This document shows positions 2,652 through 46,957 of a stretch of 63,667 bases of DNA, piece by piece (position 1 is the stretch's first letter; each line of letters opens with the position of its first letter). The notes under the pieces were generated by a model. That model was not told the origin of the DNA. It did not search any database and worked only from the letters and a program-made list of their open reading frames with translations. The position numbers and the translations under genes were made by a program. The stretch is from Candidatus Sulfotelmatobacter sp. (GTDB lineage Bacteria > Acidobacteriota > Terriglobia > Terriglobales > Acidobacteriaceae), in NCBI GenBank assembly GCA_035701745.1, contig DASSRO010000088.1, positions 1 to 63,667 on the forward strand, written 5' to 3'.

Positions 2652-2736
2652 CTCTGTGTCCCTCGGTGTCCCTCTGTGCCCTCTGTGCCCCTCTGTGTCC
2701 CTCTGAGTCTCTCTGTGTCCTCTGTGCCCTCTGTGG
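2652..2736. repeat. direct tandem array, about 9 units of CTCTGTGYCC-like 9-10-mers
   Basis: Read directly: ctctgtgtcc ctcggtgtcc ctctgtgcc ctctgtgccc ctctgtgtcc ctctgagtct ctctgtgtc ctctgtgcc ctctgtgg. It fills the thrC to alaX spacer. Confidence 0.9.
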
Positions 2737-2740
2737 TTAA

Positions 2741-3973
2741 ATGTTCCTACTGCCCATGACCACGCGTCTCTACTACAACGATTCCTTCCTCTACGACTTC
2801 GATGCCGAAGTCCGCGAGGTGCTTGAAACTCCGCGCCCCGGCGTCGTTCTCGACCAAACAGCGTTCTACCCCACCAGCGGTGGCCAAGTCTTCGACACCG
2901 GCTGGATTGCTTCCGATGCGAACTCCAAGCTCCGCGTCACGGAAGTTGCCGAGTCCGAGGATGGCAAGCTGATCCACTATCTAGAAGCACCACTCGACAT
3001 AAAACCCGGAACCCGCATCCGCGGCCAGATCGATAGCACGCGCCGCCGCGACCACATGCAGCAGCACTCCGGCCAGCACGTCCTCTCCGCCGCTTTCATC
3101 CGCCTCTACAACATCCCGACAGTTTCGTTCCACATGGCGGACGATTATTGCTCCATCGATCTCGACACGCCCACGCTGACGAAAGAACAAATCGAGTCAG
3201 CTGAGCGCCTCGCCAACGAAATTATTCTCGAGAACCGTCCTGTCGATATCCGTTACGTGACTCGTGACGAAGCCGGAAAACTGGGCCTGCGCAAACTCCC
3301 ACCCACAGAGCGCGACGAGCTTCGCCTCATCGACATCCGCGACTTCGATCTCACCGCCTGCGGCGGCACGCACGTAGCCCACACGGGACAGATCGCCAGC
3401 ATCCTGCTTCGTAAAACTGAAAAAGTCCGCCAGGGATGGCGGGTTGAATTCGTCGCCGGTCAGCGCGCCGTCGCCACCGCGCGCCGCGACTTCACCACGC
3501 TCACCGAAACCGCCGCGCTCTTTTCCGCCAACATTTACGACGTCCCGCAACAGGCTCGCAAATCGCTCGACGAAATCAAGTCGCTTCGCAAGCAGAACGA
3601 GCAGTCGCAGATCGAGCTAGCCGCAGCTTATGCCTCGGTCCTTCTTGCCGATGTTCCCGAAAGCAAAGGGCGCAAAATTATCGTCCGCACGCTCGCGGAT
3701 CGCGATCTGAACTTCGTGAAACTGCTGGCGCAAAGGGTGACTCGTCTGGCGCCCAACGTAGTCGCGTTCCTGGCCACGACTTCACCGCAGCCGTCGCTGG
3801 TGTTCGCCCAATCTCCGGGTCAGCCCTTCGACATGGGGACACTCATGAAAGAAACCATGACAAAGCTCGGAGGCCGTGGCGGTGGAAGCAAAGACATGGC
3901 GCAAGGAGGCCTGCCGAGCGCGAAGGGAATAGAGAATACTCTCCAAAACATAGCGGCGACGCTCACGGCGTGA
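2741..3973 (+). CDS. alaX: alanyl-tRNA editing protein, AlaX-L type (AlaRS editing domain plus DHHA1-like C-terminus)
   Basis: 410 aa. Zinc motifs HSGQHVLSAAF (HxxxH) and CGGTHV. C-terminal GGRGGGSKDMAQGG as in the AlaRS C-terminal/DHHA1 region. The start may be the Met at 2756 (MTTRLYYND). Confidence 0.75.
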   Translation: MFLLPMTTRLYYNDSFLYDFDAEVREVLETPRPGVVLDQTAFYPTSGGQVFDTGWIASDANSKLRVTEVAESEDGKLIHYLEAPLDIKPGTRIRGQIDSTRRRDHMQQHSGQHVLSAAFIRLYNIPTVSFHMADDYCSIDLDTPTLTKEQIESAERLANEIILENRPVDIRYVTRDEAGKLGLRKLPPTERDELRLIDIRDFDLTACGGTHVAHTGQIASILLRKTEKVRQGWRVEFVAGQRAVATARRDFTTLTETAALFSANIYDVPQQARKSLDEIKSLRKQNEQSQIELAAAYASVLLADVPESKGRKIIVRTLADRDLNFVKLLAQRVTRLAPNVVAFLATTSPQPSLVFAQSPGQPFDMGTLMKETMTKLGGRGGGSKDMAQGGLPSAKGIENTLQNIAATLTA

Positions 3974-4026
3974 GCGTCGCTGTTGTGGATTGGCTGACAG
4001 CCCGAGTGGCCCGTCGCTCCGAGGAA

Positions 4027-4266
4027 TTATGCCTGCTGCCCGCGTGCCCGTTCCCACCACACTTTGGGATCGTCGGGACGGTTCAGCATGTTGGACAATT
4101 CTTGCTTGATCTCGCGCAGGCGGTTCGTCCGCAACTCGAGCGCAGTCTGGTCGAGCGCATTATGCTCGCCCTTTCCGGTGAAACGGGCATTTAGGTTGCG
4201 CAAATCGGCTATTTCCTGGCGAAGGCTGGAGAGGTGTTCCGCAATATAAGGCATCTCCTCCATCAT
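4027..4266 (-). CDS. hypothetical small coiled-coil protein
   Basis: 79-aa ORF with charged heptad-like sequence (LSSLRQEIADLRNL...LRTNRLREIKQELSNML). It sits alone between convergent and divergent neighbours. No family recognised. Confidence 0.4.
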   Translation of the reverse strand: MMEEMPYIAEHLSSLRQEIADLRNLNARFTGKGEHNALDQTALELRTNRLREIKQELSNMLNRPDDPKVWWERARGQQA

Positions 4267-4320
4267 ACGCTCTATTTGTGCAGCCGCCGTTTAATTCCGC
4301 GGTAAAGGCGGTTCTTCGCG

Positions 4321-4375
4321 AGCGCTGAGGATTTTCTCAGCGAACTCAGCGGATTTTCTCAGCGTTCTCTGCGGT
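4321..4375. repeat. two tandem ~22-bp units, each containing a CTGAG/CTCAG hairpin
   Basis: gcgctgaggattttctcagcg aac tcagcggattttctcagcg, followed by ttctctgcggttcaag. That tail resembles the end of the 2652-2736 array (ctctgtggttaaa). Confidence 0.75.
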
Positions 4376-4446
4376 TCAAGCTTTTAGCTTTGTTTGACCA
4401 GAGCTCTCGTCTCGAAGTATGGGATGATGCTTCAAGGTGATTGGCG

Positions 4447-5990: not shown

Positions 5991-5996
5991 ATGGAT

Positions 5997-17606: not shown

Positions 17607-17870
17607 AGCTTCTAGCTGCTAGCTGCTAGCTTCTAGCAAAGGCTCACTGCTCCCCGCTAAGGAAGCTAGGAGCTATTCGCTCCACTTGAATAATTCGGCA
17701 AGATCTTCCAGACCCAGCGTTCTTAACAATTGATCGCAGAAGATGAGCGCGTCGTCCGTGATGTTCGGGCTCGTGCTCGAACCCGGTTTCTGCTCTAAGA
17801 TGAAGGTAGATGCCGTGGATTGTAGCTAGTAGCTAGAAGCTAGTAGCTAGAAGCTAGTAGCTAGAAGCTT
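17607..17870. repeat. mirror pair of CTAG-containing heptamer arrays around a ~185-nt core
   Basis: Left arm 17607-17637: (AGCTTCT/AGCTGCT) x4 plus AGC. Right arm 17823-17869: (AGTAGCT/AGAAGCT) x6-7. The arms are imperfect reverse complements. The left arm starts right after the corC-like stop and the right arm ends 5 nt before the era ATG. Confidence 0.9.
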
Positions 17871-17875
17871 ATCCC

Positions 17876-20029: not shown

Positions 20030-20050
20030 GTCGCGTTCGCGATTCGGTTA

Positions 20051-26804: not shown

Positions 26805-26822
26805 CAAAATACAACCACATGC

Positions 26823-33244: not shown

Positions 33245-33264
33245 AGGCAGGTTTTCAATTAGGG

Positions 33265-33334
33265 CAAGGTTTCAAAGTTTCAAGGAACCAATCTCCGCGA
33301 AACTTTGAGACCTTGCAACCTTACGACCTTCAAA
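33265..33334. repeat. mirror pair of 8-mer arrays (CAARGTTT vs CCTTNMRA) in the pilC-pilS spacer
   Basis: Left arm caaggtttcaaagtttcaagg (33265-33285). Right arm gaaactttgagaccttgcaaccttacgaccttcaaa (33299-33334). The arms are imperfect reverse complements. Confidence 0.8.
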
Positions 33335-33354
33335 TATTGGTTTTTCCGATCTCC

Positions 33355-35046: not shown

Positions 35047-36433
35047 CATCCTGGTCTGCGACGACGAACGCTCGATCTGCGAAATGCTCGACATCTCTCT
35101 GCGCCGCGAGGGACACCGCGTCGAGACGGTGCAATCGGGACAACAGGCGAAAAATAAAATCGACGGCGCGCTCTACGACGTGATTATCACCGACATCAAA
35201 ATGCCGACCATTGACGGCATTGAAGTGCTGCGGCACGCCCACAAAGTTTCGCCCGACTCGTCCGTCATCCTGATCACGGCGGTCGACGACTACGCGGCAG
35301 CGGTCGAAGCGGTGAAAGCGGGAGGCGCGACCGACTACATTCGCAAAAGCCCCGGGCTGGTCGACGAGATCAAGCTGGCGATCAATCGCGCGGTGGAGAA
35401 ACTGAATCTCAGCAAACAGAATTTCGCGCTGCGGCGGGACGCGGCCGCCCGCAACTCGCTGGATAACATCATCGGCTCCAGTTCCGCGATGGAGAAGCTT
35501 AAGCAGACGGTGCGGACCGTGGCTTCCACCGCCAGCACGGTGTTGATCCATGGCGAGAGCGGTACTGGAAAAGAACTGGTCGCCCGCGCCGTGCACGTTT
35601 GTTCTCCGCGCGCCACCGACGCCTTCGTTTCCGTGAACTGCGGAGCGTTTCCGGAAACCTTGCTCGAAAGCGAGCTGTTCGGCTATCTCAAAGGCGCGTT
35701 CACCGGAGCGAACCAGAACAAGCGCGGCCTGTTCGAAGTGGCCGACGGGGGAACGATCTTCCTCGACGAAATCAGCGAAATGACGCTGGCCATGCAGGTC
35801 AAGCTGCTGCGGGTGCTGCAGGAGCGGACGATTCGCCCGGTGGGGAGCACGCGCGAGATTGCCATCGATGTGCGCGTAATCGCGGCCACCAACCGCGATC
35901 TCGATAAAGCGGTCGCAGAAAATCTGTTTCGCGAAGATCTCTACTACCGGCTCAACGTGATCCCGATTCGCGTGCCTCCGCTCAGCGAGCGGCGCGAGGA
36001 CATTCCTCTGTTGGTGAATCACTTCCTGAAAAAATACGCCGCCGCCGCGGGACGCAGCATCCTGCGGGTACATGCGCCGTCGCTCGACTCGTTATGCGGC
36101 TACGAGTGGCCGGGAAACGTTCGCCAGCTGGAAAACACGGTCGAACGGGCCGTGGCGCTGGAAACCACGGAAGAATTGCACGTGCAGCTCCCTGCCGAGC
36201 GCCCTAAGGCGCGGGCTGCCGCCGCGTCCGCCGGGGGAGGGACTTTGCCGGAAATCGGCGGCGACCTTACTTTGCCCGAGGGTCTGGGAATGGAAAACTA
36301 CGTGGCGGGCATTGAACGCTCGTTGTTGCAGAGCGCTCTAAATCAGAGTGGGGGCGTCCAGACCAAGGCCGCGGACGTGCTCGGCATCTCCTACCGCTCG
36401 TTCCGGCATTTGATGAAGAAATACAGCCTGTAG
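35033..36433 (+). CDS. pilR: sigma-54-dependent response regulator PilR-like
   Basis: REC domain (ILVCDDE...TDIKMP), [21 protein letters not shown], and C-terminal HTH ([22 protein letters not shown]). It overlaps the kinase gene by 14 nt. Confidence 0.8.
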
Positions 36434-36593
36434 CTCTCAGCTGTCAGCTCTCAGCAATCAGCGAAGGCCTGATCTGTGATTTGTAACTCGCCCAGTCTAA
36501 TCAGACGGCCTTCTGGCGGGACTGCATAGGCCAGGTCAGAAAGCTGATAGCTGACGGCTGAGAGCTGAGATCTGACAGCTGAGAGCTGACAGC
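36434..36593. repeat. mirror pair of heptamer arrays (CTSTCAG vs CTGASAG-like) forming a long imperfect palindrome
   Basis: Left arm 36434-36462, immediately after the pilR stop. Right arm 36543-36593, reaching the stop of the convergent TPR gene. Inner complementarity GAAGGCCTGAT / ATCAGACGGCCTTC extends the stem. Confidence 0.9.
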
Positions 36594-36943
36594 TAGCCTT
36601 TCTTCAACTGCTGCTTCCAGCCCAGCACCCGTGCCTTTGCCCCTTCCGCCTCGGCCTCGGGGATCATCCCTTTCTTCTGGTAGAGCACCGACAAACTGGT
36701 ATGAGCGAGCACGTCGTCTGGATCGATTTCCGCCAGTTTTTGCGCGACCGCGATCGCATCGTCATAGCGTTGCAAGTCCTGCAAAGCTCGCGCCAGCCCG
36801 TGCATGGCTTCGGTGAAGGTTGGATCGGCGGCCAGAGATTCTTGATACGCGGCAACCGCTTTCTCCGTGTGTCCGTCCGCCATCAGGTCGAGCGCGGCAT
36901 AGTAATGGTCTTCAGCTTTTTGGCGGGCGTCCGGATCATGCAT
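36593..36943 (-). CDS. tetratricopeptide repeat protein
   Basis: Three TPR-like units (AVAAYQESLAADPTFTEA..., ALQDLQRYDDAIAVAQKLAEIDPDD..., LSVLYQKKGMIPEAEAE). Start taken at MHDPDARQ (36943). Confidence 0.6.
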   Translation of the reverse strand: MHDPDARQKAEDHYYAALDLMADGHTEKAVAAYQESLAADPTFTEAMHGLARALQDLQRYDDAIAVAQKLAEIDPDDVLAHTSLSVLYQKKGMIPEAEAEGAKARVLGWKQQLKKG

Positions 36944-37001
36944 GCGGGAAGATTCCAAGCAGAAACTGAATTCTAACACTGGGGGCGCAAATGCAGGAAT
37001 T

Positions 37002-37153
37002 CACCACGAAGGACACGAAGTTCCACGAAGGAAAAACGAGGCTGCATCTCGTTCCCGGCTCGGGTTTTCTCCCGCAGCACAAAACCTCAGTTCAACCGCT
37101 GCTCTTACCAACTTTGCCTGGCTTTTCTTTGTGAACCTTCGTGCCCTTCATGG
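37002..37153. repeat. inverted pair of CACGAAG-based short arrays around a ~95-nt core
   Basis: Left arm caccacgaaggacacgaagttccacgaagg (37002-37031). Right arm ctttgtgaaccttcgtgcccttcatgg (37127-37153). The core contains a small hairpin ACGAG-GCTGCAT-CTCGT. Confidence 0.8.
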
Positions 37154-37197
37154 TTCGAGGTTTTCCGAGGGCTTGACCGGGTGGGTATGATGGCTGC

Positions 37198-37431
37198 ATG
37201 CGCTACAAGCTTCGTTTTCTTTGGAACGCGACCAAAGGGCATCGCCTGGCCCCGTGGCGCAGTCCTTACCTGCTATGGCGCATTGAAACTTACACCGGCG
37301 TGAAGATGACGCAGATCGGGTTCGTGGAGTTCTGGGAATTCATGTGGCGGGAGCGCCATCATCTGTGGCGTTTTCTCGGCTGGACCAGCGACATGGAGCG
37401 CTATGTCCATCCCAAGCCGAAGGGTTCGTGA
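37198..37431 (+). CDS. hypothetical Trp-rich small protein
   Basis: 77-aa ORF with eight Trp residues (..LWNATKGHRLAPWRSPYLLWRIETYTG..FWEFMWRERHHLWRFLGW..). Codon usage looks native. No family recognised. Confidence 0.4.
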   Translation: MRYKLRFLWNATKGHRLAPWRSPYLLWRIETYTGVKMTQIGFVEFWEFMWRERHHLWRFLGWTSDMERYVHPKPKGS

Positions 37432-37450
37432 GGCAGTTCGAAGATTCTAG

Positions 37451-37641
37451 TTCTCAGTTCTCAGTTCCCAGTTCTCAGTTCTCAGAAAAGACGAAACCAA
37501 GAAAAGTTGAGCAGTGAGAGCCGAAGGCAAACAGCCCCGGCCTGAGAGTTTGCAACTGAGAGCTGAGTACCGAGTACCGAGTACTGAGTACCGAGTACCG
37601 AGAACTGAGAACCGAGAACTGAGAACTGAGAACTGAGAACT
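37451..37641. repeat. asymmetric mirror pair of heptamer arrays: (TTCTCAG)x5 vs (CTGAGAA/CCGAGTA/CTGAGAG)x~14
   Basis: Left arm 37451-37485, right arm 37541-37641, between convergent genes. The unit CTGAGAA is the same heptamer as the array at 46921-46957. Confidence 0.9.
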
Positions 37642-37645
37642 GCTC

Positions 37646-38533
37646 CTACGCGCCCGCCGCCGTGGCTTCACCGAGAAAAATGCTGACTTCCGCGCCTTTG
37701 CCTGCGCCTAGAATCTGCGCCGCGGCCGCGCGGTTCGACACAATTTCCAGATATCCCATGCTGCCCAGAATGCCAAAGACCTCGCCGGGGCCGCCCTCCG
37801 CGAAATTCTTGCGGATATCGGTGATCTCTTTTCCGCCCACCACGATCTTGAACTTCGCAGCCTGGGCAAACAGCGCAGGAGCGTCTTCGGGCGTCACATT
37901 AGTGATCAGATTCCCGAAGCGATCGACTTTCAGCACCACTGCGCGCAGGCGATTCTCGCCCGCGGGCTTGGGACGGGGAGCCGCGAAGCGCACGTAATCC
38001 TCAATCTCGTCGCCGAATTTGTGCGATTCGACGAGCTTCGCCAGATAAGCTGCCACCGGAGCGAATATGTCACGGCCATGAAATGTGTTACTCACCGGCT
38101 GCCGGAAATAGTGTTCGGCGGTGATGTGCCGCACGTGCATGCGCTCTTCCTTGGCATAGACCATGGAGAGCACGCCATTATCGGGCGCGACAAAATGATA
38201 GCCGTCGCTGGAGGCGAGAATCGGACGGCGCGTCGTTCCCACGCCGGGGTCCACTACCACCATGTGAATCGTCCCGTTAGGGAAGTAGGAGTAGGCCTGC
38301 GAAATGGCCAGTGCGCCGTCGAGCACGTCGAAGGCCTGCACGGCATGGGAAATGTCGACGATCGCAGCCTCAGGCACGATGTCGAGAATGACGCCCTTCA
38401 TTGCGCCCACAAAATGATCGTTGGTTCCAAAATCGGTGGTCAGAGTAATGATCGGACGGTGCGGCAAAGTTCCCTCGCTGGAAGACAAAATTCTAGGTAC
38501 AGCGAGGTTATTGGACAGGAAATCGTGCGTCAA
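37646..38533 (-). CDS. SAM hydrolase / SAM-dependent halogenase family protein (SAM hydroxide adenosyltransferase, DUF62)
   Basis: N-terminal ITLTTDFGTNDHFVGAMKGVI, DISH, VVDPGVGT and HGRDIFAP motifs typical of the family. Confidence 0.8.
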   Translation of the reverse strand: MTHDFLSNNLAVPRILSSSEGTLPHRPIITLTTDFGTNDHFVGAMKGVILDIVPEAAIVDISHAVQAFDVLDGALAISQAYSYFPNGTIHMVVVDPGVGTTRRPILASSDGYHFVAPDNGVLSMVYAKEERMHVRHITAEHYFRQPVSNTFHGRDIFAPVAAYLAKLVESHKFGDEIEDYVRFAAPRPKPAGENRLRAVVLKVDRFGNLITNVTPEDAPALFAQAAKFKIVVGGKEITDIRKNFAEGGPGEVFGILGSMGYLEIVSNRAAAAQILGAGKGAEVSIFLGEATAAGA

Positions 38534-38668
38534 GGCACGTAGGTCATAGCTGGAAACAACACCCTTGGCAATCCACGGAGGAAGGGACGGCTACTTGTTA
38601 CTTCTTGAAGGAAGAGGAGCTTGTGGCCGAAATCGAAAAGCAAGGGAACGAATGTAAGGGCATGTCTC

Positions 38669-39925
38669 TTACTCGTAGCGCAGCGCTTCGATCGGATTCA
38701 GCCGCGATGCTTTCAGGGCGGGGAAGAAGCCGGAGACGATTCCGACCAGCGACAGGATGACGAACGAAATCATCATCACGCCGAGGGAGGCGTGCAGAAA
38801 GATCGCGCCCTCGTGGTCGGCGGTTTTGTAGAACTCGTCGTAGAGGGGCATGGGTGGAATCGCCCACGTAAGAAATTCGGCGACTGCCATTCCGATGAGG
38901 CCGCCGACAAAGGTGAGCACCAGCGCCTCCAGAAGGAATTGCACGAGGATGTGCCGGGGCCGTGCTCCAATTGCCTTGCGCAGGCCGATTTCGCGCGTCC
39001 GCTCGGTCACCGAGACCAACATGATATTCATCACGCCGATGCCGCCGACTGCCAGCGTGCACACGCCGATCAGTCCCAGCACCGCCTGCAGTCCGTAGGA
39101 GAACGCATTGATCATGGCGCGGTCTTCAATCGTGTCCCACTCCGGCGTGGCCTTGTCGTCTTTGGGATCGAAGTGGTGCCGCCGCGCGATTACCTCGCGC
39201 ACCGCCATCAGCGCCTTCTTGTTGAGTTCCGGCGCGGTGGGTTGAATGATGATCTCGTCGGGATCGCGAAGGTTTTTCAGGTCGCGCATCAGCGCGAAGG
39301 GAATGAAGGCATTCTCGTTGTCCGGACCCTGATACATGGAGTCCTGAATCTTGTTGCGCATGGTGCCGATCACTTCAAAATCCAGGCCGCCGATTTCCAC
39401 GTGCTGGCCCGCGCCGGGAGCACCCTGGAACACTTTCTTAGCTGCCTCGTAGCCGAGAATCACCACGCGATGGTGATCGGCGAAATCGCTCTCGTTGAAG
39501 TAGCGGCCGTCTGCCAGGTCCAGCTTGCGCATCTGCCCGTAGGGCATGTCCACGCCGCGCACCATGATTGACACCACGCGCGTGCCGATCTTGAAGCCGA
39601 GGTCGCGGTCGATTTCGCCGCTCACCGCGCGCACGATGGGAACTTCGTCGCGAATTGCCTCCACATCCTCTAGTTCATAGGCAACTTTCTTTCCTGCACG
39701 CTGCCCGCCAGCCTGCATGCTCGTCTGCCCGGGCCACATCACGATTACGTTGTTGCCCATGTTGAGGAAGGCATGCAGCACGCATCCGCCCAGCCCCTGG
39801 CCGTAGGCCAGCAACAGCACCACCGATACCAATCCCCACACGATGCCCAGCATGGTCAGCGACGACCGCATGCGGTCGCGCATCAGCGACTGCCAGCCTT
39901 GCGAGATGAGTTCCTTCAGGTACAT
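38669..39925 (-). CDS. ABC transporter permease, MacB-like (MacB periplasmic domain plus FtsX)
   Basis: 418 aa. N-terminal TM (RSSLTMLGIVWGLVSVVLL), a large periplasmic domain, and a C-terminal FtsX module (SVTERTREIGLRKAIGA...). Ends ..IEALRYE. Confidence 0.85.
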   Translation of the reverse strand: MYLKELISQGWQSLMRDRMRSSLTMLGIVWGLVSVVLLLAYGQGLGGCVLHAFLNMGNNVIVMWPGQTSMQAGGQRAGKKVAYELEDVEAIRDEVPIVRAVSGEIDRDLGFKIGTRVVSIMVRGVDMPYGQMRKLDLADGRYFNESDFADHHRVVILGYEAAKKVFQGAPGAGQHVEIGGLDFEVIGTMRNKIQDSMYQGPDNENAFIPFALMRDLKNLRDPDEIIIQPTAPELNKKALMAVREVIARRHHFDPKDDKATPEWDTIEDRAMINAFSYGLQAVLGLIGVCTLAVGGIGVMNIMLVSVTERTREIGLRKAIGARPRHILVQFLLEALVLTFVGGLIGMAVAEFLTWAIPPMPLYDEFYKTADHEGAIFLHASLGVMMISFVILSLVGIVSGFFPALKASRLNPIEALRYE

Positions 39926-39931
39926 AAGAAA

Positions 39932-40012
39932 GTGGCCAGTGGCCAGTGTTCAGTGGCCAGCGATCAAGTCCAGAGCCGCGTTTTGTCTGCGGCCACCGAC
40001 CACTGGCCACTG
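39932..40012. repeat. intra-operon mirror array, GTGGCCA heptamers
   Basis: Left arm gtggccagtggccagtgttcagtggccagcg (39932-39962). Right arm cggccaccgaccactggccactg (39990-40012). It lies in the 93-nt spacer between the DUF4097 stop and the permease start. Confidence 0.85.
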
Positions 40013-40018
40013 ATTTCG

Positions 40019-40978
40019 CTATCCAATATGAATGTCTCCGGACCCGGTGCGCACCTTCAGCAATTGGCCGCCGCCATGCACTTTGCCATGGATCTGGTGG
40101 TGTGTGTCGTCGACTCGGCCTTGCACCGTCATCTCGATTGGCGAGCCTACGTCGATGCTCCCCGAGCTGGTGGAAATATCCGCGTCAAAACCGGCATCAC
40201 CCGGCAGCTTCAACCGCACGTTGCCCGAGCCAGTGCGAATTTCCCACGCGCCACCCATGGTCCCTTCGGCTGTAACGTCGCCGCTGCCAGTCTCGCCGTG
40301 GAAGCCGCCGTTGATGCCGCGGGCGGTCAGGTTGCCCGAACCAGTGCGCAAGTCCACCTCACCCGCACTGGTTTCTTCGACTTCTACGTCGCCGCTTCCG
40401 GTCCCGCCTTTCACCGAGCCCGCGATCTGGTGCGCGCGCACGTTGCCCGAACCGGTCTGCAAACGAATCTCGCCGTTGAGGTTGCTGAGCTTCAGGTCGC
40501 CGGAGCCAGTTTGCGTGTCGACGTTGCCATGCGTGCCCTCGATGGTCTGATCGCCCGAACCGCTCCGCGTGCGCACGACGGTATCGGCAGGGACTGTGAT
40601 CTCGTAATCCACCGAGATGTTGTGCATGTCCACGTAATCAATGTGAACGTTGTTACCTTCTTGCCGGATGGGGGGATTCTGTTCGATCTGGTGCACGTCG
40701 CTCTCGCGATTGCCGCTGAACCAGTTGTTGCCGACAAAAATCTTTCCGCGGATAAGCACCGATCCCGATGACCCGGCGCGGACAGTGATGTCGCCGGAAT
40801 GCGTGAGCACCTCAAGATTGACTGGGCCGTTCACCGTCAGCGTTCGCTCAAACGAGCCCTGCGGGTTGGAGGCGAAAACTGCGGTGGAGGCGAAAAGCAC
40901 GACCAGCGCGATGGCAAAGCTCAACCGGCTGGACACTGGAGCGGCATGCGTGCGGAACTGAGAAGCGTGTTTATTCAT
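40019..40978 (-). CDS. DUF4097 family beta-strand repeat protein (LiaG-like putative adhesin fold)
   Basis: N-terminal signal/anchor, then many TGSG(D/N)(V/L/I) repeats (SGSGDQT, TGSGDLK, TGSGNVR, TGSGDVE, TGSGNLT, TGSGDVT, TGSGNVR, SSGSIDV, TGSGDIH). Confidence 0.7.
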   Translation of the reverse strand: MNKHASQFRTHAAPVSSRLSFAIALVVLFASTAVFASNPQGSFERTLTVNGPVNLEVLTHSGDITVRAGSSGSVLIRGKIFVGNNWFSGNRESDVHQIEQNPPIRQEGNNVHIDYVDMHNISVDYEITVPADTVVRTRSGSGDQTIEGTHGNVDTQTGSGDLKLSNLNGEIRLQTGSGNVRAHQIAGSVKGGTGSGDVEVEETSAGEVDLRTGSGNLTARGINGGFHGETGSGDVTAEGTMGGAWEIRTGSGNVRLKLPGDAGFDADISTSSGSIDVGSPIEMTVQGRVDDTHHQIHGKVHGGGQLLKVRTGSGDIHIG

Positions 40979-42230
40979 AGCGTAGAGACTCCACGGGTGT
41001 CATATCCGCGGCGCGCTGGGCGGGATACATGCCTGCGGTCACGGTGATTAACGAAAGGGTCAAGATTGACGCGACAATCGAAATCCAGGAAACGATGGGG
41101 TGAGGGACGAAGTCTGGGAGCGGCAACTGTTCCATGGCCGCGCATGTGCCCATGCCAACCGCGAGGCCGAGAATACCGCTGACCACAGTAAGCATTGCGG
41201 ACTCGGCAAAAAACTGGCGCAGGATGTCGCGCTTGGTTGCGCCCATGGCCTTGCGCGTGCCGATCTCGCGGGTGCGCTCGGTGACCGATACCAGCATGAT
41301 GTTCATGACGCCGATTCCGCCCAGGCACAGCGTCACAATCGCAACGCACCCGAAGAAGATGGTCACCACACCGAAAATCTTGTCCAGCATCTTCGCGCCC
41401 TCCATGGTGTCCCAAATAAATAACGCGTCTTTGTCGAGCGGGTCGAAGTGGTGCACTCGCGCCAGACTGCGGCGTACCTGTAGGACGGCGGATTCATGCT
41501 CTTCCGGATCGCTCACTTCAAAAACAATGTCATCCAGATAGCCGCGCGTGATTCCAGCCCCGGGCTTGGTGGGCGGAGGAAAATCGCGCGACACCGCCGA
41601 GTACGGGGCGAAGAGGTAATCGTTGTCGGGACCGCTGTAATTCGAGTTCTGTTTTTTCTCCTGCAGGACACCGACTACAAGGTAGGGAACACTCTGCACC
41701 AGCACGCTGGCGCCGATGGCGGGCTGCCCGGGGAAGAGCTGCCGGTAGGCTTTCGATCCCAGCACCAGCACGCGGCGGCCTTCGCGTTGGTCGTCGTCGG
41801 TAATCAGCCGTCCCTCGGAGATTTGCAGGGCGCGGAAATCCTGATACGACGGCCACATGCCGACCACGCCGCGGCTCGCCAGGTTGTACTGGCTCACTTC
41901 CGGAATGGTTCGCCGCAACTCCGGGCTGACATTCTTTACCATGTAGCACTCGTCGCGAATCAGGTCGGCGTCGTCGACGCTCAAGTGGATCTCGCGGCCG
42001 GCGGCTCGTCCGCCCACCTGCGAACTGGTGCGGCCGCCCCACATGATGACCAGGTCTTTGCCGAGCGTGGCCATGTGTTTCTTCTGGTCGACGCTGAAGC
42101 CGCGTCCGAGGCCCACCAGGATGATCACCGACGCGATGCCCCACACGATCCCGAACATCGTGAGAAAGGTTCGCATCTTGTGAGTCCGGAAGGTCGCGAA
42201 AGCCTGGCGGAGAATTTCAGAGAGAGTCAT
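40971..42230 (-). CDS. ABC transporter permease, MacB-like (MacB periplasmic domain plus FtsX)
   Basis: 419 aa, paralogous to 38669..39925 (SVTERTREIGTRKAMGA, ..VESLRYE). It overlaps the DUF4097 start by 8 nt. Confidence 0.85.
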   Translation of the reverse strand: MTLSEILRQAFATFRTHKMRTFLTMFGIVWGIASVIILVGLGRGFSVDQKKHMATLGKDLVIMWGGRTSSQVGGRAAGREIHLSVDDADLIRDECYMVKNVSPELRRTIPEVSQYNLASRGVVGMWPSYQDFRALQISEGRLITDDDQREGRRVLVLGSKAYRQLFPGQPAIGASVLVQSVPYLVVGVLQEKKQNSNYSGPDNDYLFAPYSAVSRDFPPPTKPGAGITRGYLDDIVFEVSDPEEHESAVLQVRRSLARVHHFDPLDKDALFIWDTMEGAKMLDKIFGVVTIFFGCVAIVTLCLGGIGVMNIMLVSVTERTREIGTRKAMGATKRDILRQFFAESAMLTVVSGILGLAVGMGTCAAMEQLPLPDFVPHPIVSWISIVASILTLSLITVTAGMYPAQRAADMTPVESLRYE

Positions 42231-42245
42231 AACAATCCCTAAAGC

Positions 42246-42322
42246 AACCGGCTTCCGGCTCTCGGCTTCCGGTGGTACGGATAGCGCTTGAACCGGAAGC
42301 CGGTGGCATGACGCCTGAAGCC
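42246..42322. repeat. intra-operon mirror array, CGGCTTC/CGGCTCT vs CCGGAAG heptamers
   Basis: Left arm aaccggcttccggctctcggcttccggtgg (42246-42275). Right arm gaaccggaagccggtggcatgacgcctgaagcc (42290-42322). It lies in the 97-nt spacer between the adaptor stop and the permease start. Confidence 0.85.
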
Positions 42323-42327
42323 ATTCT

Positions 42328-43584
42328 TTACTGCAGGACTACTTGATCGCCTTCCTTCAACCCGCTAAGCACCTCGGTCTTGGCGCCGTTCGAGATCCCA
42401 ATGTTGACGGCCACTTTATCCTTGCCGTCTTTGCCCTTGGGATTGGGAATTTCCACCGAAGCCTTTTTGTCCTTGTCGTAGAGGATTGCGCCTTCGGGAA
42501 TCTGCAGCACGTTCTTGTGTTCTTCCAGGATGATTTCCGCGTTGGCGGTCATCTCGGCCTTGAGTTCGCCGCCGGGATTCTGGATCGACACGCGCACTTC
42601 AAAGGTTGTGACGTTATCTTTCTCGACACCCATGGGAGAAATTTTCGTCACTTTGCCGTCAAAGGTTTTGTCCTTGAAAGACTCGACCTTGATGCGCGCC
42701 CGTTGTCCCAGGTACACCTTGCCGATGTCGCTCTCGTCGACCTTGCCCTTTACGTACACTTCGCTGGTATCGCCCAGCGTCATGACCAGCGTGGCGGACG
42801 AGCCTAACACCAGGATCGAGCTCACTGCGTCGCCCATCTGCACGTCGCGCGAGAGCACGATGCCGTCAATCGGCGAGATGATGTCGGTGTAGCTGAGCTG
42901 CTCTTCCAGTTGCTTGAGATTGGCTTCATCCTGGGCTACCTGGGCCTGGGATTGCGCAATCTTCGCCTTCAGCACAGTTACCTGCGCCTTCGACACGTTC
43001 TGCTTGTTCAACGCCATCTCGTAATTTTTCTGCGAATCTTCGAGAGAGGAAGTTGAAACCACGCCGTCCTTGGCCATGCTGACGTTGCGCTCATAGGCGC
43101 GCTTTAGGAGCGGCACATCGGGACCCTCCGCGTCGACCTTGGCGCGTTCGAAATCAGCCTGCGAACTCTTGAGGTTGGCTTGCGCGGCTTCCAGTGCGGC
43201 CTTCGATTGCTCCACCTGCGCCTCAATCTCGATCTTGTCGAGTTGGGCCAGCAATTGGCCTTTCTTCACGCGATCGCCATAGTCCACCAGCAGCTTTTTC
43301 ACAATGCCGCTGGCTTTCGATTTGACTTCGACCTTTGTGATGGGCGTGACCTTGCCGGTTGCGACGACGCTTTTAGCTAAGTCGCCTTTTTCCACTTTGG
43401 CAAGTTTCGACGGATCAATTTTGGTGCCGCCACGCGTCGCAGCTATGACTCCGCCTGCGATCACCAGCACGATGACCGCGACCACGATTCCCCAGATGAT
43501 CAGTTTGCGACGCTTTTTCTTATTATTTCCGTTGCCGTTCACAACGCCTCCTGTAGATACCGCCAAGTGGAGATTGGGAGCCAT
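42328..43584 (-). CDS. efflux transporter periplasmic adaptor subunit (HlyD/MacA family)
   Basis: N-terminal TM anchor, a long coiled-coil hairpin (AQVEQSKAALEAAQANLKSSQADFERAK...) and beta-barrel/lipoyl-like segments. Confidence 0.85.
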   Translation of the reverse strand: MAPNLHLAVSTGGVVNGNGNNKKKRRKLIIWGIVVAVIVLVIAGGVIAATRGGTKIDPSKLAKVEKGDLAKSVVATGKVTPITKVEVKSKASGIVKKLLVDYGDRVKKGQLLAQLDKIEIEAQVEQSKAALEAAQANLKSSQADFERAKVDAEGPDVPLLKRAYERNVSMAKDGVVSTSSLEDSQKNYEMALNKQNVSKAQVTVLKAKIAQSQAQVAQDEANLKQLEEQLSYTDIISPIDGIVLSRDVQMGDAVSSILVLGSSATLVMTLGDTSEVYVKGKVDESDIGKVYLGQRARIKVESFKDKTFDGKVTKISPMGVEKDNVTTFEVRVSIQNPGGELKAEMTANAEIILEEHKNVLQIPEGAILYDKDKKASVEIPNPKGKDGKDKVAVNIGISNGAKTEVLSGLKEGDQVVLQ

Positions 43585-44984: not shown

Positions 44985-45224
44985 AAAAGCATCCTCCTGG
45001 GGCGATTGATGCGAGCGCCTTTGCCGTTGTTGCACAATTCTGAATGTTGCATTCGACAGTCAGTTGGTGGATGGCCGGTTAACACGGAAGTTATCGTCAA
45101 CGCGGGGAGGGCTGAACTGCGGCATGTGGCTGCTTCAATTAGCTTTGGGGCGGCTGCGCTCATAGTGAGACGAAATTCCTCCCACCTCAATCCATGCCCT
45201 TTAAAATGTTAGAATTACCCATCC

Positions 45225-46613
45225 ATGATCGCTTTTGTGCTGCTCCGGGTCATTCTGATCCTCCTCCTGGTGGCGGCCAATGCCTTCTTCGCAGCAGCCG
45301 AATTCGCCCTGGTGAGCGTGCGCGATACGCGCATCCAGCAGCTCATTTCCGCGGGGCGCATTGGCGCGCGCATCGTGCAGCGGCTTCACCAGAATCTTGA
45401 CGAGGTCGTCAACGGGGTGCAGTTGGGCGTCACCATGGTCAGCCTCACCCTGGGCTGGATCGGCGAGCCCATCGTCGCCCGCCTGGTGGAAGGGACGCGC
45501 TTCGTCCATGAAGTTCCCCATGCCGCCGTCTACGCTCACGCGATAGCTATCGCGGTCGCCTTCAGCCTGATCACTTACATGCACGTGATCCTCGGCGAGC
45601 TGGTCCCAAAAACTCTGGCGCTGCAACGCGCGGAGCATGTTGCGCTCGCGGTGGCAGCGCCCATGGAGGCCTTCCTCACCCTTACGCGCCCGGTTCTTTT
45701 CTTCATGCGGCGTTCGGGAGGCCTGGTGTTGCGGCTGTTTGGCGCACAGCCGACGCGCCGAGGCGGCGCCGTCCACTCCCCCGACGAACTCAAGCTCATC
45801 GTCACCGCCAGCCGCCAGTTCGGGCAGATTCCCGAATTTCAGGAAGAAATGATCCACAGCGCCATTGAACTCGACAGCATTACGGTTCGAGAAGTCATGG
45901 TGGCCCGCCCTGACATTTTTTCTCTACCCTCCGACCTGACGCTCGACGATGCCCTGGCGCGCGTGGTCGAGGGCCAGCACTCGCGCATTCCTGTATACGA
46001 CCCGCAGCGCGGCCCGGAGCACATAGTCGGGGTGCTCTACTACAAAGATCTCATGCGCTGGATGCGCCTGCGCCTCAGCAACCTTGGCCAGTCGGTCGCG
46101 ATTCGGATTTCGGCAATGCAAATCGGGCAGATCATGCACGACGTGCTGGTCGTTCCCGAAACCAAGGTTCTGGCGGAACTGCTGTCTGAGTTCAAGGATC
46201 GCCGCCGCCATCTTGCGGTCGTGGTCGACGAATTCGGCTCGACTGCCGGCGTGATCACGGTCGAGGACATCCTCGAACAACTGGTTGGCAACATCGAAGA
46301 CGAGTTCGACGTTTCTCCTACTGAGCCCGCGCTCGCGAACGAATCGGTTCTCGCGCTCGAGGGTTCGGTTAACATTCGCGACCTTGAAACCGAGTATGGG
46401 CTGACGCTTCCGCGCGACGCTGGTTTTGAGACGTTGGCCGGATTTATCCTCGCTCGCCTGCAGAGGATTCCAGTGCTGCGTGATTCTTTCGAATACGACG
46501 GCCGCCGCTATACGGTGGAAGACCTGGAAGGCCACCGCATCGCCAGGGTTCGCATAGAAAAGACCGCCAAAGTAGAAGGCGAAGCCGAAGCGGCGAAGGG
46601 AGCAGGAGACTGA
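45225..46613 (+). CDS. hemolysin/CorC family protein (CNNM/DUF21, CBS pair, CorC_HlyC)
   Basis: 462 aa, same architecture as 16341..17606. Its stop codon lies inside the first unit of the 25-bp repeat array. Confidence 0.85.
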   Translation: MIAFVLLRVILILLLVAANAFFAAAEFALVSVRDTRIQQLISAGRIGARIVQRLHQNLDEVVNGVQLGVTMVSLTLGWIGEPIVARLVEGTRFVHEVPHAAVYAHAIAIAVAFSLITYMHVILGELVPKTLALQRAEHVALAVAAPMEAFLTLTRPVLFFMRRSGGLVLRLFGAQPTRRGGAVHSPDELKLIVTASRQFGQIPEFQEEMIHSAIELDSITVREVMVARPDIFSLPSDLTLDDALARVVEGQHSRIPVYDPQRGPEHIVGVLYYKDLMRWMRLRLSNLGQSVAIRISAMQIGQIMHDVLVVPETKVLAELLSEFKDRRRHLAVVVDEFGSTAGVITVEDILEQLVGNIEDEFDVSPTEPALANESVLALEGSVNIRDLETEYGLTLPRDAGFETLAGFILARLQRIPVLRDSFEYDGRRYTVEDLEGHRIARVRIEKTAKVEGEAEAAKGAGD

Positions 46614-46717
46614 AGCCGCAAAGGGCGCAGGAGACGGAAGCCGCGAAGGGAGCAGGAGACGGACGCTGCGAAGGGAGCAGGAGACGGAGGCTGCGAAGGG
46701 AGTAGGAGACTGCGAAG
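46596..46717. repeat. five direct 25-bp repeats (AAGGGAGCAGGAGACGGANGCNGCG)
   Basis: Unit starts (AAGGG) at 46596, 46621, 46646, 46671 and 46696. The first unit contains the TGA stop (46611-46613) of the CNNM gene. Confidence 0.9.
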
Positions 46718-46747
46718 ATGCGCGCTCCGTATTAGCACCCTATGGCA

Positions 46748-46903
46748 TGTCATCCTGAGCGAAGCACGAGGGCGAGCAAAGCGAGCCTTCGCGCGCAGTC
46801 GAAGGACCTTGTGCTCGGCGGCGCCTCGCTGCCAGCGCATCCCGGGAACACAAGGTCCTTCGACTACGCGAGCGCATTCGCGCTCGCTCCGCTCAGGATG
46901 ACA
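46748..46903. repeat. nested palindromic element (MITE/REP-like)
   Basis: Outer stem GTCATCCTGAGCG (46749-46761) / CGCTCAGGATGAC (46890-46902). Inner stem GTCGAAGGACCTTGTG (46798-46813) / CACAAGGTCCTTCGAC (46849-46864). Plus hairpin GCGAGCGC-ATTC-GCGCTCGC (about 46869-46888). Confidence 0.85.
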
Positions 46904-46920
46904 AAAAACGAATTCCGCGC

Positions 46921-46957
46921 GAGAACTGAGAACTGAGAACTGAGAACTGAGAACTGA
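46921..46957. repeat. (GAGAACT)x5 heptamer array abutting the permease gene
   Basis: Five perfect units, 46921-46955. This is the same unit (CTGAGAA in another register) as the right arm at 37590-37641. Confidence 0.95.

Follow-up and report, generated by a model that had tools for sequence, protein, structure and literature searches.

Related repeats in other bacteria

Paired, inverted heptamer arrays have been described in two bacterial groups. In Xanthomonas, GGGAATC heptamers form paired, convergently oriented intergenic arrays, with 70–75 pairs per genome, whose length varies between species while their type (single array or inverted pair) is kept (Rehm 2015, PMC4692102). Classes 1–3 of Geobacter metallireducens comprise three to five tandem units of 7–9 nt (GTTGCTYN, TCTCCGTS[Y], and MTYCTGA) on opposite strands, at a variable distance of ~70–110 bp, and a DNA-binding role has been proposed for these paired sites (Aklujkar 2009, PMC2700814). 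According to a summary of Mrazek (2007) given in PMC4679880, heptamers are the most common among the long simple-sequence repeats of prokaryotes.

Other dispersed repeats are also comparable. REP/BIME, ERIC, and Correia elements are hairpin-forming, 3′ untranslated or intercistronic, promoter-avoiding, and nested or clustered, and are known to influence mRNA ends and stability via RNase III and RNase E. Some BIMEs and Correia elements are known to be bound by proteins at the DNA level. Cyanobacterial STRR (short tandemly repeated repetitive) heptamers were reportedly described by Mazel and colleagues in 1990, and Vioque is said to have observed in 1997 that they elongate a helix in RNase P RNA. 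STRR consist of heptamers repeated in tandem between genes; a genome carries several unit families, and complementary runs can extend an RNA helix.

Our window is a 63,667-nt stretch of DNA from Candidatus Sulfotelmatobacter sp. (contig DASSRO010000088.1). As in Xanthomonas, its arrays are overwhelmingly intergenic, and paired arrays on opposite strands could fold into a stem-loop or cruciform. Xanthomonas uses one G-rich unit with G-quadruplex potential, whereas the lineage of the window has dozens of units, none with G-tracts; a single genome holds several families, and families replace one another at a given spacer. Like G. metallireducens, which belongs to another phylum, it carries several classes per genome, also between operon genes (PMC2700814). 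Geobacter class 2 (TCTCCGTS) resembles, by eye, the CTCCGTG/CTCTGTG family found at 2652–2735 and in relatives. The Geobacter sites were called IHF/HU or regulator sites by conjecture, in a paper without comparative or population data.

Several units of the window lineage have the CAGT/ACTG cores of STRR, but STRR are mainly direct arrays for which mirroring is not defining, and in Nostoc only a few are paired. TAACTGA repeats of marine Beggiatoaceae, cyanobacteria, and Bacteroidetes are similarly intergenic heptamers in tens of copies (MacGregor 2015, PMC4679880), yet nearly all are direct (one indirect among 169 sets) and lie just upstream of start codons, whereas arrays of the window lineage follow stop codons. 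The window elements share dispersal, hairpins, and placement with REP/BIME, ERIC, and Correia elements, whose arms, unlike theirs, lack a tandem structure. REPs bear GTAG or CGTC tags and need RAYT transposases, and MITEs have defined termini and target-site duplications; neither set of features was found here, and no conserved termini, target-site duplication, or candidate transposase was detected. A preliminary description of this DNA had correctly set the arrays apart from CRISPR and classical REP. It erred in assigning them to no described class: given the Xanthomonas and Geobacter arrays, they are not a new class.

Heptamer arrays in the window

The arrays and their partners are as follows.

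2652–2735, plus strand: solo array of 8.7 CTCTGTGYCC units (period 10), ending in CTCTGTGGTTAAA
17607–17637, plus strand: 5′ arm, 4.4 AGCTKCT units (Tandem Repeats Finder)
17822–17869, plus strand: 3′ arm, 6.9 AGCTAGW units, perfect at period 14 (Tandem Repeats Finder)
33248–33285, plus strand: 5′ arm of an 8-mer family (unit GTTTCAAR), following the stop codon (33244) of a pilC-like gene
33299–33334, plus strand: matching 3′ arm of that 8-mer family (unit GAAACYTT), ahead of the start codon (33355) of a pilS-like gene
36428–36462, plus strand: 5′ arm, four to five CTNTCAG units, taking in the pilR-like stop codon TAG (36431–36433)
36542–36594, plus strand: 3′ arm, 7.6 CTGANAG units, reaching into the stop codon of a convergent TPR gene
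37002–37032, plus strand: three copies of CACGAAGGA inside TTCACCACGAAGGACACGAAG, a variant of the CACAGAG/CACGGAG family
37127–37153, plus strand: CCTTCGTGCCCTTCATGG, weak complementary partner of 37002–37032 in the minimum free energy (MFE) structure
37445–37485, plus strand: 5′ arm, six TTCTCAG units, after the stop codon (37431) of a 77-aa gene
37554–37642, plus strand: 3′ arm, CYGAGTA then CYGAGAA, 12.7 units in all (Tandem Repeats Finder)
39931–39960, minus strand: arm, 4.3 AGTGGCC units (Tandem Repeats Finder)
39991–40012, minus strand: partner arm of 39931–39960, 3.1 GGCCACT units (Tandem Repeats Finder)
42248–42272, minus strand: "type A" hairpin arm, 3.6 CCGGCTT units, in the HlyD–MacB intercistronic spacer
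42293–42322, minus strand: "type A" partner arm of CCGGAAG units, complementary to the CCGGCTT arm
46921–46957, plus strand: solo array, 5.3 GAGAACT units (Tandem Repeats Finder)

Tandem Repeats Finder returned period-7 arrays at 17607–17637, 17822–17869, 36432–36462, 36542–36594, 37445–37485, 37554–37642, 39931–39960, 39991–40012, 42248–42272, and 46921–46957, together with period-8 arrays at 33265–33283 and 33309–33330, one period-9 array (37005–37032), one period-10 array (2652–2735), and period-21 structure in two arrays. A stricter rescan of periods 4–15 returned only 7 and its multiple 14. Counting arrays of at least three copies, the 10 period-7 arrays compare with a mean of 0.25 and a maximum of 3 when the window was simulated 100 times under a first-order Markov model. 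The heptamer-array observation is confirmed as real, including its excess over chance and the preferred 7-nt period, although the list behind the claim of "at least eleven" spacers covers nine.

Many arms closely adjoin genes. The array at 2652–2735 spans the whole gap from a stop codon (2643) to an ATG (2741); it corresponds to the 3′-arm type of the TTCACCACAGAGG...CCTCTGTGGTGAA family, which is mirrored in relatives. The 17607–17637 arm begins at the base directly after the stop codon of a CorC/CBS gene (16341–17606), its partner stops 6 nt short of the Era GTPase start codon (17876), and the 184-nt core between them holds no credible ORF. The TPR gene convergent to the pilR-like gene occupies 36593–36943 on the minus strand, and 3 nt separate the end of the 37554–37642 arm from the stop codon of a SAM-hydroxide adenosyltransferase gene (37646–38467, minus strand). 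The arms at 39931–40012 lie between the start codon of a MacB-like gene (39925) and the stop codon of a DUF4097 gene (40019), both on the minus strand. The array at 37002–37032 sits in a divergent spacer. That at 46921–46957, 105 nt upstream of an oppB-like start codon (47062), has a unit in common with the 37554–37642 arm, and no TTCTCAG partner was found for it within the window.

The preliminary interpretation is supported in part. Mirror pairing holds in general, but 2652–2735 and 46921–46957 are solo arms and the 37002/37127 pair is weak. No array covers a real start codon, as one had been thought to do: the ORF start at 33004 is mechanical, and the pilS-like gene begins at 33355 by the gene call in contig L001. 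The proposed shadow ORF at 37447..37671 is present, as a mechanical ORF. It is arithmetically true that 7, being coprime to 3, lets units with stop triplets close every frame; no functional link was found, and 5′ arms adjoining stop codons are mostly without such triplets.

Hairpin potential of the spacers

The suggestion that these spacers can form hairpins was borne out by MFE z-scores computed against dinucleotide shuffles. Six of the eight tested window spacers fold well beyond the shuffles (z −3.4 to −13.3): 17607–17875 (−5.9 on the plus and −3.2 on the minus strand), 33245–33354 (−6.0, the 8-mer family), 36434–36592 (−6.1 and −4.5), 37432–37645 (−8.9 and −13.3), 39926–40018 (−5.3 and −6.3), and 42231–42327 (−3.4 and −4.6, type A). 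The 37002/37127 pair appears in the MFE structure, yet its spacer scores only 0.4 and −1.8. There is no hairpin at 2652–2735 (z 0.7 and −0.5). No U-tract follows the hairpins, and a consensus terminator scan gave fewer sites than in shuffles.

Distribution among relatives

The comparative set was 1.5 Mb from 80 species related to this soil acidobacterium, of the Terriglobia ("Ca. Sulfotelmatobacter"-like) lineage. Its 80 loci are about 10 spacers sampled repeatedly, so that the counts are not independent. Arrays of at least three copies number ~214–215 for period 7, 59 for period 8, and 53–54 for period 6. Period-7 arrays are intergenic in 188 of 215 cases, though only ~14% of the DNA is intergenic; period-6 arrays are coding in 52 of 54. 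About 60 distinct heptamer units occur in the 1.5 Mb, the commonest being AACTGAG. Intergenic 7- to 8-nt arrays thus extend across the lineage, beyond the window in which they had been noticed, and the 7-nt preference recurs there.

The mirror arrangement holds here too. A partner within 600 nt is reverse-complementary for 128 arrays and direct for 6, and 54 further arrays have a reverse-complementary partner of only two copies. The gap between mirrored arms has a median of 27 nt, and the distance from arm start to stop codon a median of 5.5 nt. Mirrored pairs avoid divergent spacers: the 64 pairs fall in 52 co-directional, 11 convergent, and 1 divergent spacer, against 479, 171, and 201 background spacers. 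In some relatives both arms persist though an inserted gene separates them.

Turnover and copy number variation

Closely related species can carry different unit families at one orthologous spacer, and several unrelated units coexist within one genome. Copies of one family also recur at unrelated loci. An 8-mer family that includes the odd unit GTGACAAG occupies at least six unrelated gene contexts, and the GGGTCTTAGGTGTT family is shared by pilC|pilS and MacB|HlyD; loops of dispersed copies are not conserved. The spacer is empty or nearly so in some relatives (12–39 nt at g07|g08, 0–23 nt at g09|g10).

Arrays differ by whole units between near-identical strains. Over 15 kb, the window and a contig 99.7% identical to it show a single indel, which amounts to one GAGTACC unit. 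Among contigs with identical neighboring spacers, both arms of 37445–37642 differ by one unit: the 37445–37485 arm has one fewer in L085 and L089, and the 37554–37642 arm one more or fewer in L001/L084 and L089. Copy number at an orthologous spacer ranges from 2 to 41, and the lengths of paired arms are uncorrelated (Spearman 0.01). Large one-sided expansions, such as 3 versus 41 or 17 versus 3 units, serve no hairpin.

Candidate explanations

We cautiously favor the view that these are dispersed, REP/ERIC-like palindromic elements with microsatellite arms, transcribed into mRNA hairpins, and we infer their role at the RNA level. Counting for this view are the excess of arrays, their mirrored arms and hairpin z-scores, the placement after stop codons, dispersal with turnover, whole-unit slippage, and the constraint described below; counting against it are the absence of U-tracts, a strand bias that weakens under a composition control, the one-sided expansions, and arms that persist on either side of an inserted gene. 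It is possible, if doubtful, that the elements are instead selfish or neutral palindromic microsatellites without host function, spread and enlarged by copying, by slippage, and by template switching inside the palindrome, and persisting only where harmless, downstream from genes and away from promoters. Fast replacement at one spacer, empty spacers, uncorrelated arm lengths with expansions on one side up to 41 units, and unconserved loops all suit this explanation, and purifying selection against promoter disruption would equally lead to avoidance of divergent spacers.

Three observations of constraint argue against it. The type-A hairpin is almost invariant in 14 species, whereas synonymous sites are near saturation (4-fold degenerate sites only ~0.53 identical). 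The 8-mer element at pilC|pilS is nearly constant in length (96–117 nt) in 17 species. Finally, the sense strand is favored in co-directional spacers, where its fold is more stable than the antisense fold in 24 versus 8, 35 versus 20, and 42 versus 9 loci. With a composition control this bias is smaller and still significant in two of three spacers; at MacB|DUF4097 it is not significant with that control, and at g14|g15 the energy bias has the opposite sign. The pilR|TPR arms co-vary (CAGC/GCTG, TAGC/GCTA, GAGC/GCTC) in 12 of 14 callable loci; substitution of one sister family for another, as opposed to compensatory mutation in situ, could give this pattern.

The invariance of type A would also suit a protein site, and the architecture matches Geobacter classes 1–3, which their authors read as IHF/HU or global-regulator sites. 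Three heptamers make 21 bp, or two helical turns, in keeping with the period-21 structure of two arrays. Even so, it is unlikely that the arrays serve at the DNA level as binding sites for nucleoid or topology proteins (IHF, HU, gyrase) or an unidentified global regulator: some 60 units, several of them unrelated within a genome, argue against one sequence-specific protein, the arms complement each other with no motif common to all loci, and strand asymmetry of folding is unexpected of a purely double-stranded site.

We consider it very improbable that a translational or post-transcriptional regulator binds the arrays as repeated sites on mRNA, the role suggested for the Beggiatoaceae TAACTGA arrays. 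AACTGAG is one base from TAACTGA (read as AACTGAT), the solo arrays of the window precede start codons on the sense strand (2652–2735 abuts its ATG, without a Shine–Dalgarno sequence), and among solo period-7 arrays of co-directional spacers an A-rich sense strand is the commoner case (38 versus 20). Most arrays, however, are mirrored and follow stop codons, some between convergent genes with no following start codon, and the diversity of units again argues against a single binding protein. Contingency loci, in which unit number would switch neighboring genes on or off (phase variation), are the least credible reading of the difference among near-identical strains, given a free-living soil bacterium whose variable arrays occupy gaps between convergent stop codons or sit in housekeeping operons (era, pilSR, an ABC efflux system), and neither between promoter and start codon nor in coding sequence.

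Predicted roles of the hairpins

On the reading we favor, the arrays are the arms of small dispersed palindromic elements of roughly 60–270 bp that fill presumably transcribed gaps between genes in this Terriglobia lineage. Each element consists of two reverse-complementary arms, which flank a loop of variable size and hold three to seven (occasionally more than 40) units of 7 or 8 nt, with several families per genome, copies of one family at unrelated loci, and families supplanting one another at a spacer over short evolutionary distances. Each arm behaves as a microsatellite: replication slippage adds or removes whole units in one arm regardless of its partner, with period 7 as the slippage-favored unit length reported for prokaryotes generally. 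The data show the anatomy, the excess over chance, the hairpin potential, dispersal with turnover, and the unit-number polymorphism directly, whereas transcription, action at the RNA level, and the route by which copies spread are inferred. Among analogous elements, those of MITE type insert into each other (PMC10969869).

The elements sit just past stop codons, at 3′ ends, and inside operons, and they are therefore presumably transcribed. Their RNA would fold into a long, imperfect hairpin tolerant of register shifts. RNase III cleaves Correia elements and RNase E cleaves ERIC elements (PMC10969869), and the hairpins most likely act as those of REP, ERIC, and Correia elements do: they would be a barrier or processing site that fixes mRNA 3′ ends and the stability of mRNA segments, and would also halt convergent transcription.

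Short-unit arrays in the window

Tandem Repeats Finder located the following arrays in the window.

17607-17637: period-7 array
17822-17869: period-7 array
36432-36462: period-7 array
36542-36594: period-7 array
37445-37485: period-7 array
37554-37642: period-7 array
39931-39960: period-7 array
39991-40012: period-7 array
42248-42272: period-7 array
46921-46957: period-7 array
33265-33283 and 33309-33330: period-8 arrays
37005-37032: period-9 array
2652-2735: period-10 array

When the window was scanned more strictly for periods 4-15, period 7 and its multiple 14 were the only ones recovered. The 10 period-7 arrays with at least three copies compare with a mean of 0.25 and a maximum of 3 in 100 first-order Markov simulations, so the proposed preference for 7 nt exceeds chance. 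On inspection, the sequence bears out the units as well as the reverse complementarity between proximal and distal arrays. Thus, the preliminary description correctly recorded, and described well, a real and strongly nonrandom feature. Its figure of at least eleven spacers is not matched by its own list, which holds nine.

When folded as RNA, six spacers lie far below their dinucleotide shuffles (z from -3.4 to -13.3), which agrees with the suggestion that they form hairpins.

17607-17875: spacer containing the first pair of period-7 arrays
33245-33354: pilC|pilS spacer
36434-36592: pilR|TPR spacer
37432-37645: spacer on the side of the SAM-hydroxide adenosyltransferase gene
39926-40018: MacB|DUF4097 spacer
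42231-42327: MacB|HlyD spacer

Mirror pairing had been claimed for most loci, and reverse-complementary arms are indeed present. The arrays at 2652-2735 (z about 0) and 46921-46957 (no partner) are instead solo arms, and the pair proposed at 37002-37031 / 37127-37153 is weak (z 0.4 and -1.8). One array was thought to lie over a start region, but real start codons are covered by none. An AlaX-like gene (2741-3973) begins 5 nt past the point where the CTCTGTGYCC array ends, and the intervening sequence (2736-2743; CTCTGTGGTTAAATG) has nothing resembling a Shine-Dalgarno site. The window is ordinary housekeeping chromosome, and its PilR-like protein also occurs on two soil-metagenome contigs.

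Occurrence and placement in the lineage

A one-genome-per-species scan yielded 80 orthologous loci (1.5 Mb) around the SAM-hydroxide adenosyltransferase gene. All derive from Acidobacteriaceae, 'Candidatus Sulfotelmatobacter' or Terriglobia MAGs, with protein identities of 83-94% and the pilB-to-oppB gene order kept. Because these loci resample about a dozen spacers, neither the counts that follow nor those on pairing and placement below are independent. Arrays of at least three copies peak sharply at period 7 (214, compared with 53, 59, and 16 at periods 6, 8, and 9). Intergenic DNA makes up only ~14% of the total but houses 188 of the 215 period-7 arrays; 52 of 54 period-6 arrays are coding.

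Among the 215 period-7 and 69 period-8 arrays, 128 have a reverse-complement partner no more than 600 nt away, compared with just 6 that have a direct one. A further 54 are accompanied by a two-copy reverse-complement partner that falls below the length detected by Tandem Repeats Finder. The gap between arms has a median of 27 nt and ranges from 1 to 448 nt. The dominance of period 7 and the inverted pairing extend from the window to the lineage. Of the mirrored pairs, 52 lie in co-directional, 11 in convergent, and 1 in divergent spacers, against a background of 479, 171, and 201 such spacers. The median distance between a stop codon and the start of an arm is 5.5 nt.

The two arms also differ in composition. 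Over the mirrored pairs of the window and of relatives L003-L082 taken together, the unit of the 5' arm is T-rich and A-poor (T 109 versus A 37 when weighted by array; 56 versus 25 across 25 distinct units). It follows that the 3' arms are A-rich and carry the TGA, TAG, and TAA triplets, and because the element is a palindrome the polarity is present on both strands. Closure of all three frames by stop codons is rejected as the reason for period 7, since stop triplets are mostly absent from the 5' arms that follow the stop codons.

Slippage and unit number

Unit number varies between orthologous spacers. Over 15 kb at 99.7% identity to the related contig L001, the sole indel is one GAGTACC unit. 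In six near-identical contigs both arms at 37445-37642 vary by one unit, and neighboring spacers of 159 and 254 nt are identical or differ by at most one base. Copy number in one arm does not correlate with that in the other (Spearman 0.01), which implies that expansions are one-sided and speaks against mutual copying as a means of keeping arms symmetrical.

Period 7 would be best explained by a general slippage preference of prokaryotes. Mrazek et al. (2007), as summarized in PMC4679880, suggested that the polymerase contacts a stretch of 7 nt. An origin from mini-hairpins, with a 4-nt palindrome and a 3-nt loop in each unit, was not supported; such palindromes occur in 25 of 60 distinct units versus 18.8 expected (P = 0.06), and are mostly AGCT.

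There are practical consequences as well. Three short-read contigs stop within the TTCTCAG arm, and arrays of this kind break short-read assemblies. A second effect is the creation of low-complexity shadow ORFs, which may be annotated as genes by automated pipelines.

Turnover and dispersal of unit families

At the spacer orthologous to 37432-37645, the closest relatives retain the TTCTCAG/CTGAGAA unit in 2 to 41 copies around unrelated loops. Other species carry mirrored CAGTGAT, TAGGGAC, or CTTTGCG units, a mirrored TTCACCACAGAGG...CCTCTGTGGTGAA element, a GC-rich GTAG-type palindrome, or a small membrane-protein gene, or are nearly empty (12-39 nt). The MacB|DUF4097 and MacB|HlyD spacers behave in the same way. 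Particular families recur at several of these sites: the 8-mer GTTTCAAR family at pilC|pilS, MacB|DUF4097, and MacB|HlyD; the GGGTCTTAGGTGTT family at pilC|pilS and MacB|HlyD; and the AACTGAG family at two or more spacers.

When metagenomes were scanned with a 24-mer containing an odd unit of the 8-mer family (GGTTTCAAAGTGACAAGGTTTCAA), matches came from 22 contigs, and the gene contexts were of six or more unrelated kinds. Every copy lies a few bases from a stop codon, and the loops differ. The dispersed copies share AGGTTTCAAAGTGACAAGG at the left, but their ends are set by unit number rather than fixed, and no target-site duplication flanks them in six contexts. These copies are homologous rather than convergent, and so copies do spread between loci. 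Separately, a 33-mer (TGAAACTTTGAAACCTAGGGTTAGATTGACCTT) on both sides of one such element in L097 (1-230) suggests two tandem copies at the start of that contig.

Other palindromes and insertions

Several further repeats share these intergenic regions. A nested long palindrome at 46745-46905, TGTCATCCTGAGCGAAGC...GCTCCGCTCAGGATGACA, has 18-nt arms 120 nt apart around CGCGCAGTCGAAGGACCTTGTGCTC / GAACACAAGGTCCTTCGACTACGCG. The same palindrome (GTCATCCTGAGCGAAGCGAAGGACC...) fills the MacB|DUF4097 spacer in six relatives (L005, L024, L029, L037, L055, and L068), and thus represents a further dispersed palindromic family competing for the same spacers. The interval that separates the histidine-kinase start codon (26506) from the stop codon of the GH10 gene (26823, minus strand) holds, at 26706-26805, a 34-nt unit repeated 2.9 times; each unit carries the hairpin GGCCGGGTC-AGA-GGACCCGGCC, which makes a tandem series of three REP-like stem-loops. 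A 25-nt unit (GAAGCCGCGAAGGGAGCAGGAGACG) is present in five copies at 46587-46710, from within the CNNM/CorC 3' end (stop codon 46613) to ~100 nt beyond, and a 22-nt unit repeated 2.6 times at 4318-4374, each with a CTGAG-GATTTT-CTCAG hairpin, lies in the gap before an amine-oxidase-like gene (4441).

In relatives, a separate GTAGCGCCGCC... palindrome is a better REP candidate than the arrays. A GC-rich palindromic (G)TAGCGCCGCCGTCCCGGCGGC...GCCGGCAAGATGCCGGCGCTAC element with GTAG/CTAC ends, found at the 37432-37645 orthologue in L011, L018, L023, L024, L033, L041, and L051, is also a better candidate for a classical REP of the RAYT type than they are.

Genes can also lie between arms. At this orthologue in L060 (9617-10360), an ORF of ~120 aa is flanked by 17+2 TTCTCAG units and 3 CTGAGAA units; from inspection by eye, we take its product to be a four-helix bundle resembling the '23S rRNA intervening-sequence protein'. 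Unrelated small membrane or secreted-protein ORFs lie between separated arms at pilR|TPR in L009, L020, and L006. The loop of mirrored elements seems to be a place of gene insertion. Elsewhere in the window, a PIN-domain (VapC-like) gene (48169-48585) and the region preceding it lie between oppB-like (47062-47868) and oppC-like (49420-50289) permease genes, with a 17-nt near-duplicate (TCCACGTAAAATACGTGA) at 47898-47931. The region 47874-48585 probably represents a toxin-antitoxin insertion interrupting the opp operon.

Comparison with known element classes

The arrays are not CRISPR, as had been stated, since units run head-to-tail without spacers. The exclusion of classical REP/BIME elements also stands: each arm is built from tandem copies of a short unit, units are of many kinds, and they share no GTAG/CGTC tag, whereas a REP is a single consensus palindrome of 20-40 nt. 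The arms are inverted repeats, but the lack of target duplication and of fixed ends speaks against a TIR-bounded MITE, again in line with the preliminary description. A published MITE review is silent on arms made of tandem arrays (PMC10969869). None of the 30 window ORFs scanned against Pfam matched a transposase family above its curated cut-off; one weak sub-threshold match, IstB_IS21, underlies a PhoH-like ATPase.

Intrinsic terminators can be rejected, with 15 consensus sites in the window versus 19.6 in shuffles and no U-tract signature. Only 36577-36594 and 39933-39945 fall within array arms, each as a local 5-bp stem, and TTT(T) follows the hairpin only in type A, the CCGGCTT/CCGGAAG element at 42248-42322. 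Neither sigma-70 promoters nor canonical terminators exceed chance at the arrays. The entire window has no Rfam 15 match at gathering score, and the sole sub-threshold match in 33000-43000, McaS, is at chance level (E 0.68). No tRNA or tmRNA was found. Carriage by phages is rejected, as among 2.9 million viral contigs just one contains (GAGAACT)4. Coding cores are likewise rejected, given that the 184-nt core at 17638-17821 has no credible ORF and the inter-arm ORFs of relatives are unrelated accessory genes.

The preliminary description could not place the arrays in a described class, but the architecture has been reported in Xanthomonas and in Geobacter metallireducens. Xanthomonas genomes each hold 70-75 convergent pairs of GGGAATC arrays, whose lengths differ between species while the type is preserved (Rehm et al. 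2015; PMC4692102). G. metallireducens has three classes of paired sites, each site with 3-5 tandem units of 7-9 nt, on opposite strands ~70-110 bp apart, and its class 3 units are ATTCTGA/CTCCTGA (Aklujkar et al. 2009; PMC2700814). The arrays described here share tandem units of 7 (to 9) nt in at least three copies, strongly intergenic placement, pairing on opposite strands, and repeat numbers that differ between related genomes while the arrangement is kept. Compared by eye, G. metallireducens class 2 (TCTCCGTS) resembles the CTCCGTG/CTCTGTG family. Unlike the G-tract, G-quadruplex-capable subtype of Xanthomonas and Nostoc, the units lack GGG tracts, the exception being rare TAGGGAC/CAGGGGC arrays in relatives.

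Cyanobacterial STRR heptamers are related direct arrays. Beggiatoaceae TAACTGA repeats are another example (PMC4679880), and AACTGAG is one base away from that unit. Heptamers were reported in 2007 by Mrazek as the commonest long simple repeat of prokaryotic genomes, according to the summary in PMC4679880. Our literature searches returned no account of such arrays in Acidobacteriota. The arrays are thus a member of an already reported kind, in a new phylum, with an unusually rich set of families.

Constraint and the level of action

The type A hairpin, in the HlyD-MacB spacer, is almost invariant in 14 species, including its asymmetric internal loop, while identity at 4-fold degenerate sites in the flanking genes is only about 0.53. 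Because its stem never varies, covariation statistics on this alignment are uninformative. The 8-mer element at pilC|pilS is held to 96-117 nt in 17 species. At pilR|TPR, the arms change together (CAGC/GCTG, TAGC/GCTA, GAGC/GCTC) in 12 of 14 callable loci, and the two exceptions are wobble-compatible on one strand. That the elements are selfish or neutral DNA is possible, if on balance rather doubtful: rapid turnover at the same spacer and one-sided expansion sit easily with it, and the near-invariance of type A and the steady length of the 8-mer element at pilC|pilS less so.

The sense strand gives the more stable fold at all three co-directional spacers for which the data sufficed (24 versus 8, 35 versus 20, and 42 versus 9 loci). 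After shuffle asymmetry is subtracted, this bias is kept at pilC|pilS (-3.75 kcal/mol) and at MacB|HlyD (-1.41 kcal/mol; G-U pairs 222 versus 138) and is not significant at MacB|DUF4097. The g14|g15 spacer has the opposite bias. Together, the sense-strand bias and the avoidance of divergent spacers lead us to favor a transcribed, RNA-level element, short of proof. Protein sites at the DNA level are improbable. We judge sites for an mRNA-binding regulator very unlikely. Phase variation is hardly credible: unit number does vary, but the arrays lie past stop codons and in housekeeping operons, whereas a contingency locus would have its repeat in the coding sequence of a surface or variable gene or between the promoter and start codon of one.

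Proposed role and significance

The arrays make up the arms of palindromic elements; these are dispersed, evolve in the manner of microsatellites, and fill gaps directly past stop codons. We infer a function for the hairpins. The elements would be co-transcribed with flanking genes, and the transcript would fold into a long hairpin that tolerates register shifts. By analogy, such hairpins may act as exonuclease barriers or RNase III/E sites that fix 3' ends and the relative stability of operon segments, and may also halt transcription where genes converge. The functional analogues are the hairpins of REP, ERIC, and Correia elements (PMC10969869). Translational coupling, in which the hairpin base links the upstream stop codon to the downstream ribosome-binding site, is not general because in type A, where conservation is best, the AGGGA site lies outside the hairpin, and because no start codon follows the element when genes converge.

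At least three phyla have yielded paired inverted heptamer arrays. A more speculative proposal, which we consider unlikely, is that mirrored short-unit arrays constitute a mobile-element class of their own that crosses phyla, the 'palindromic microsatellite'. Its members would move from one stop-codon-proximal site to another with neither a conventional transposase nor a target duplication, and their families would compete for the same intergenic niches, with hosts using them as length-tunable RNA hairpins that set the ends and relative stability of operon segments. If true, the heptamer excess in many prokaryotes, cyanobacterial STRR, Xanthomonas GGGAATC pairs, and Geobacter paired sites would be one phenomenon.

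What is useful here is the comparative behavior: families replace one another at fixed spacers, homologous copies are dispersed, a frozen hairpin sits next to hypervariable ones, and arms lie close against stop codons. The Terriglobia lineage is an unusually rich comparative system, with many unit families per genome, replacement between sister species at the same spacer, and a hairpin unchanged across species adjacent to one whose length differs between strains. With this comparison, the choice between selfish and functional elements, the level of action (RNA or DNA), and the mode of spread become testable.
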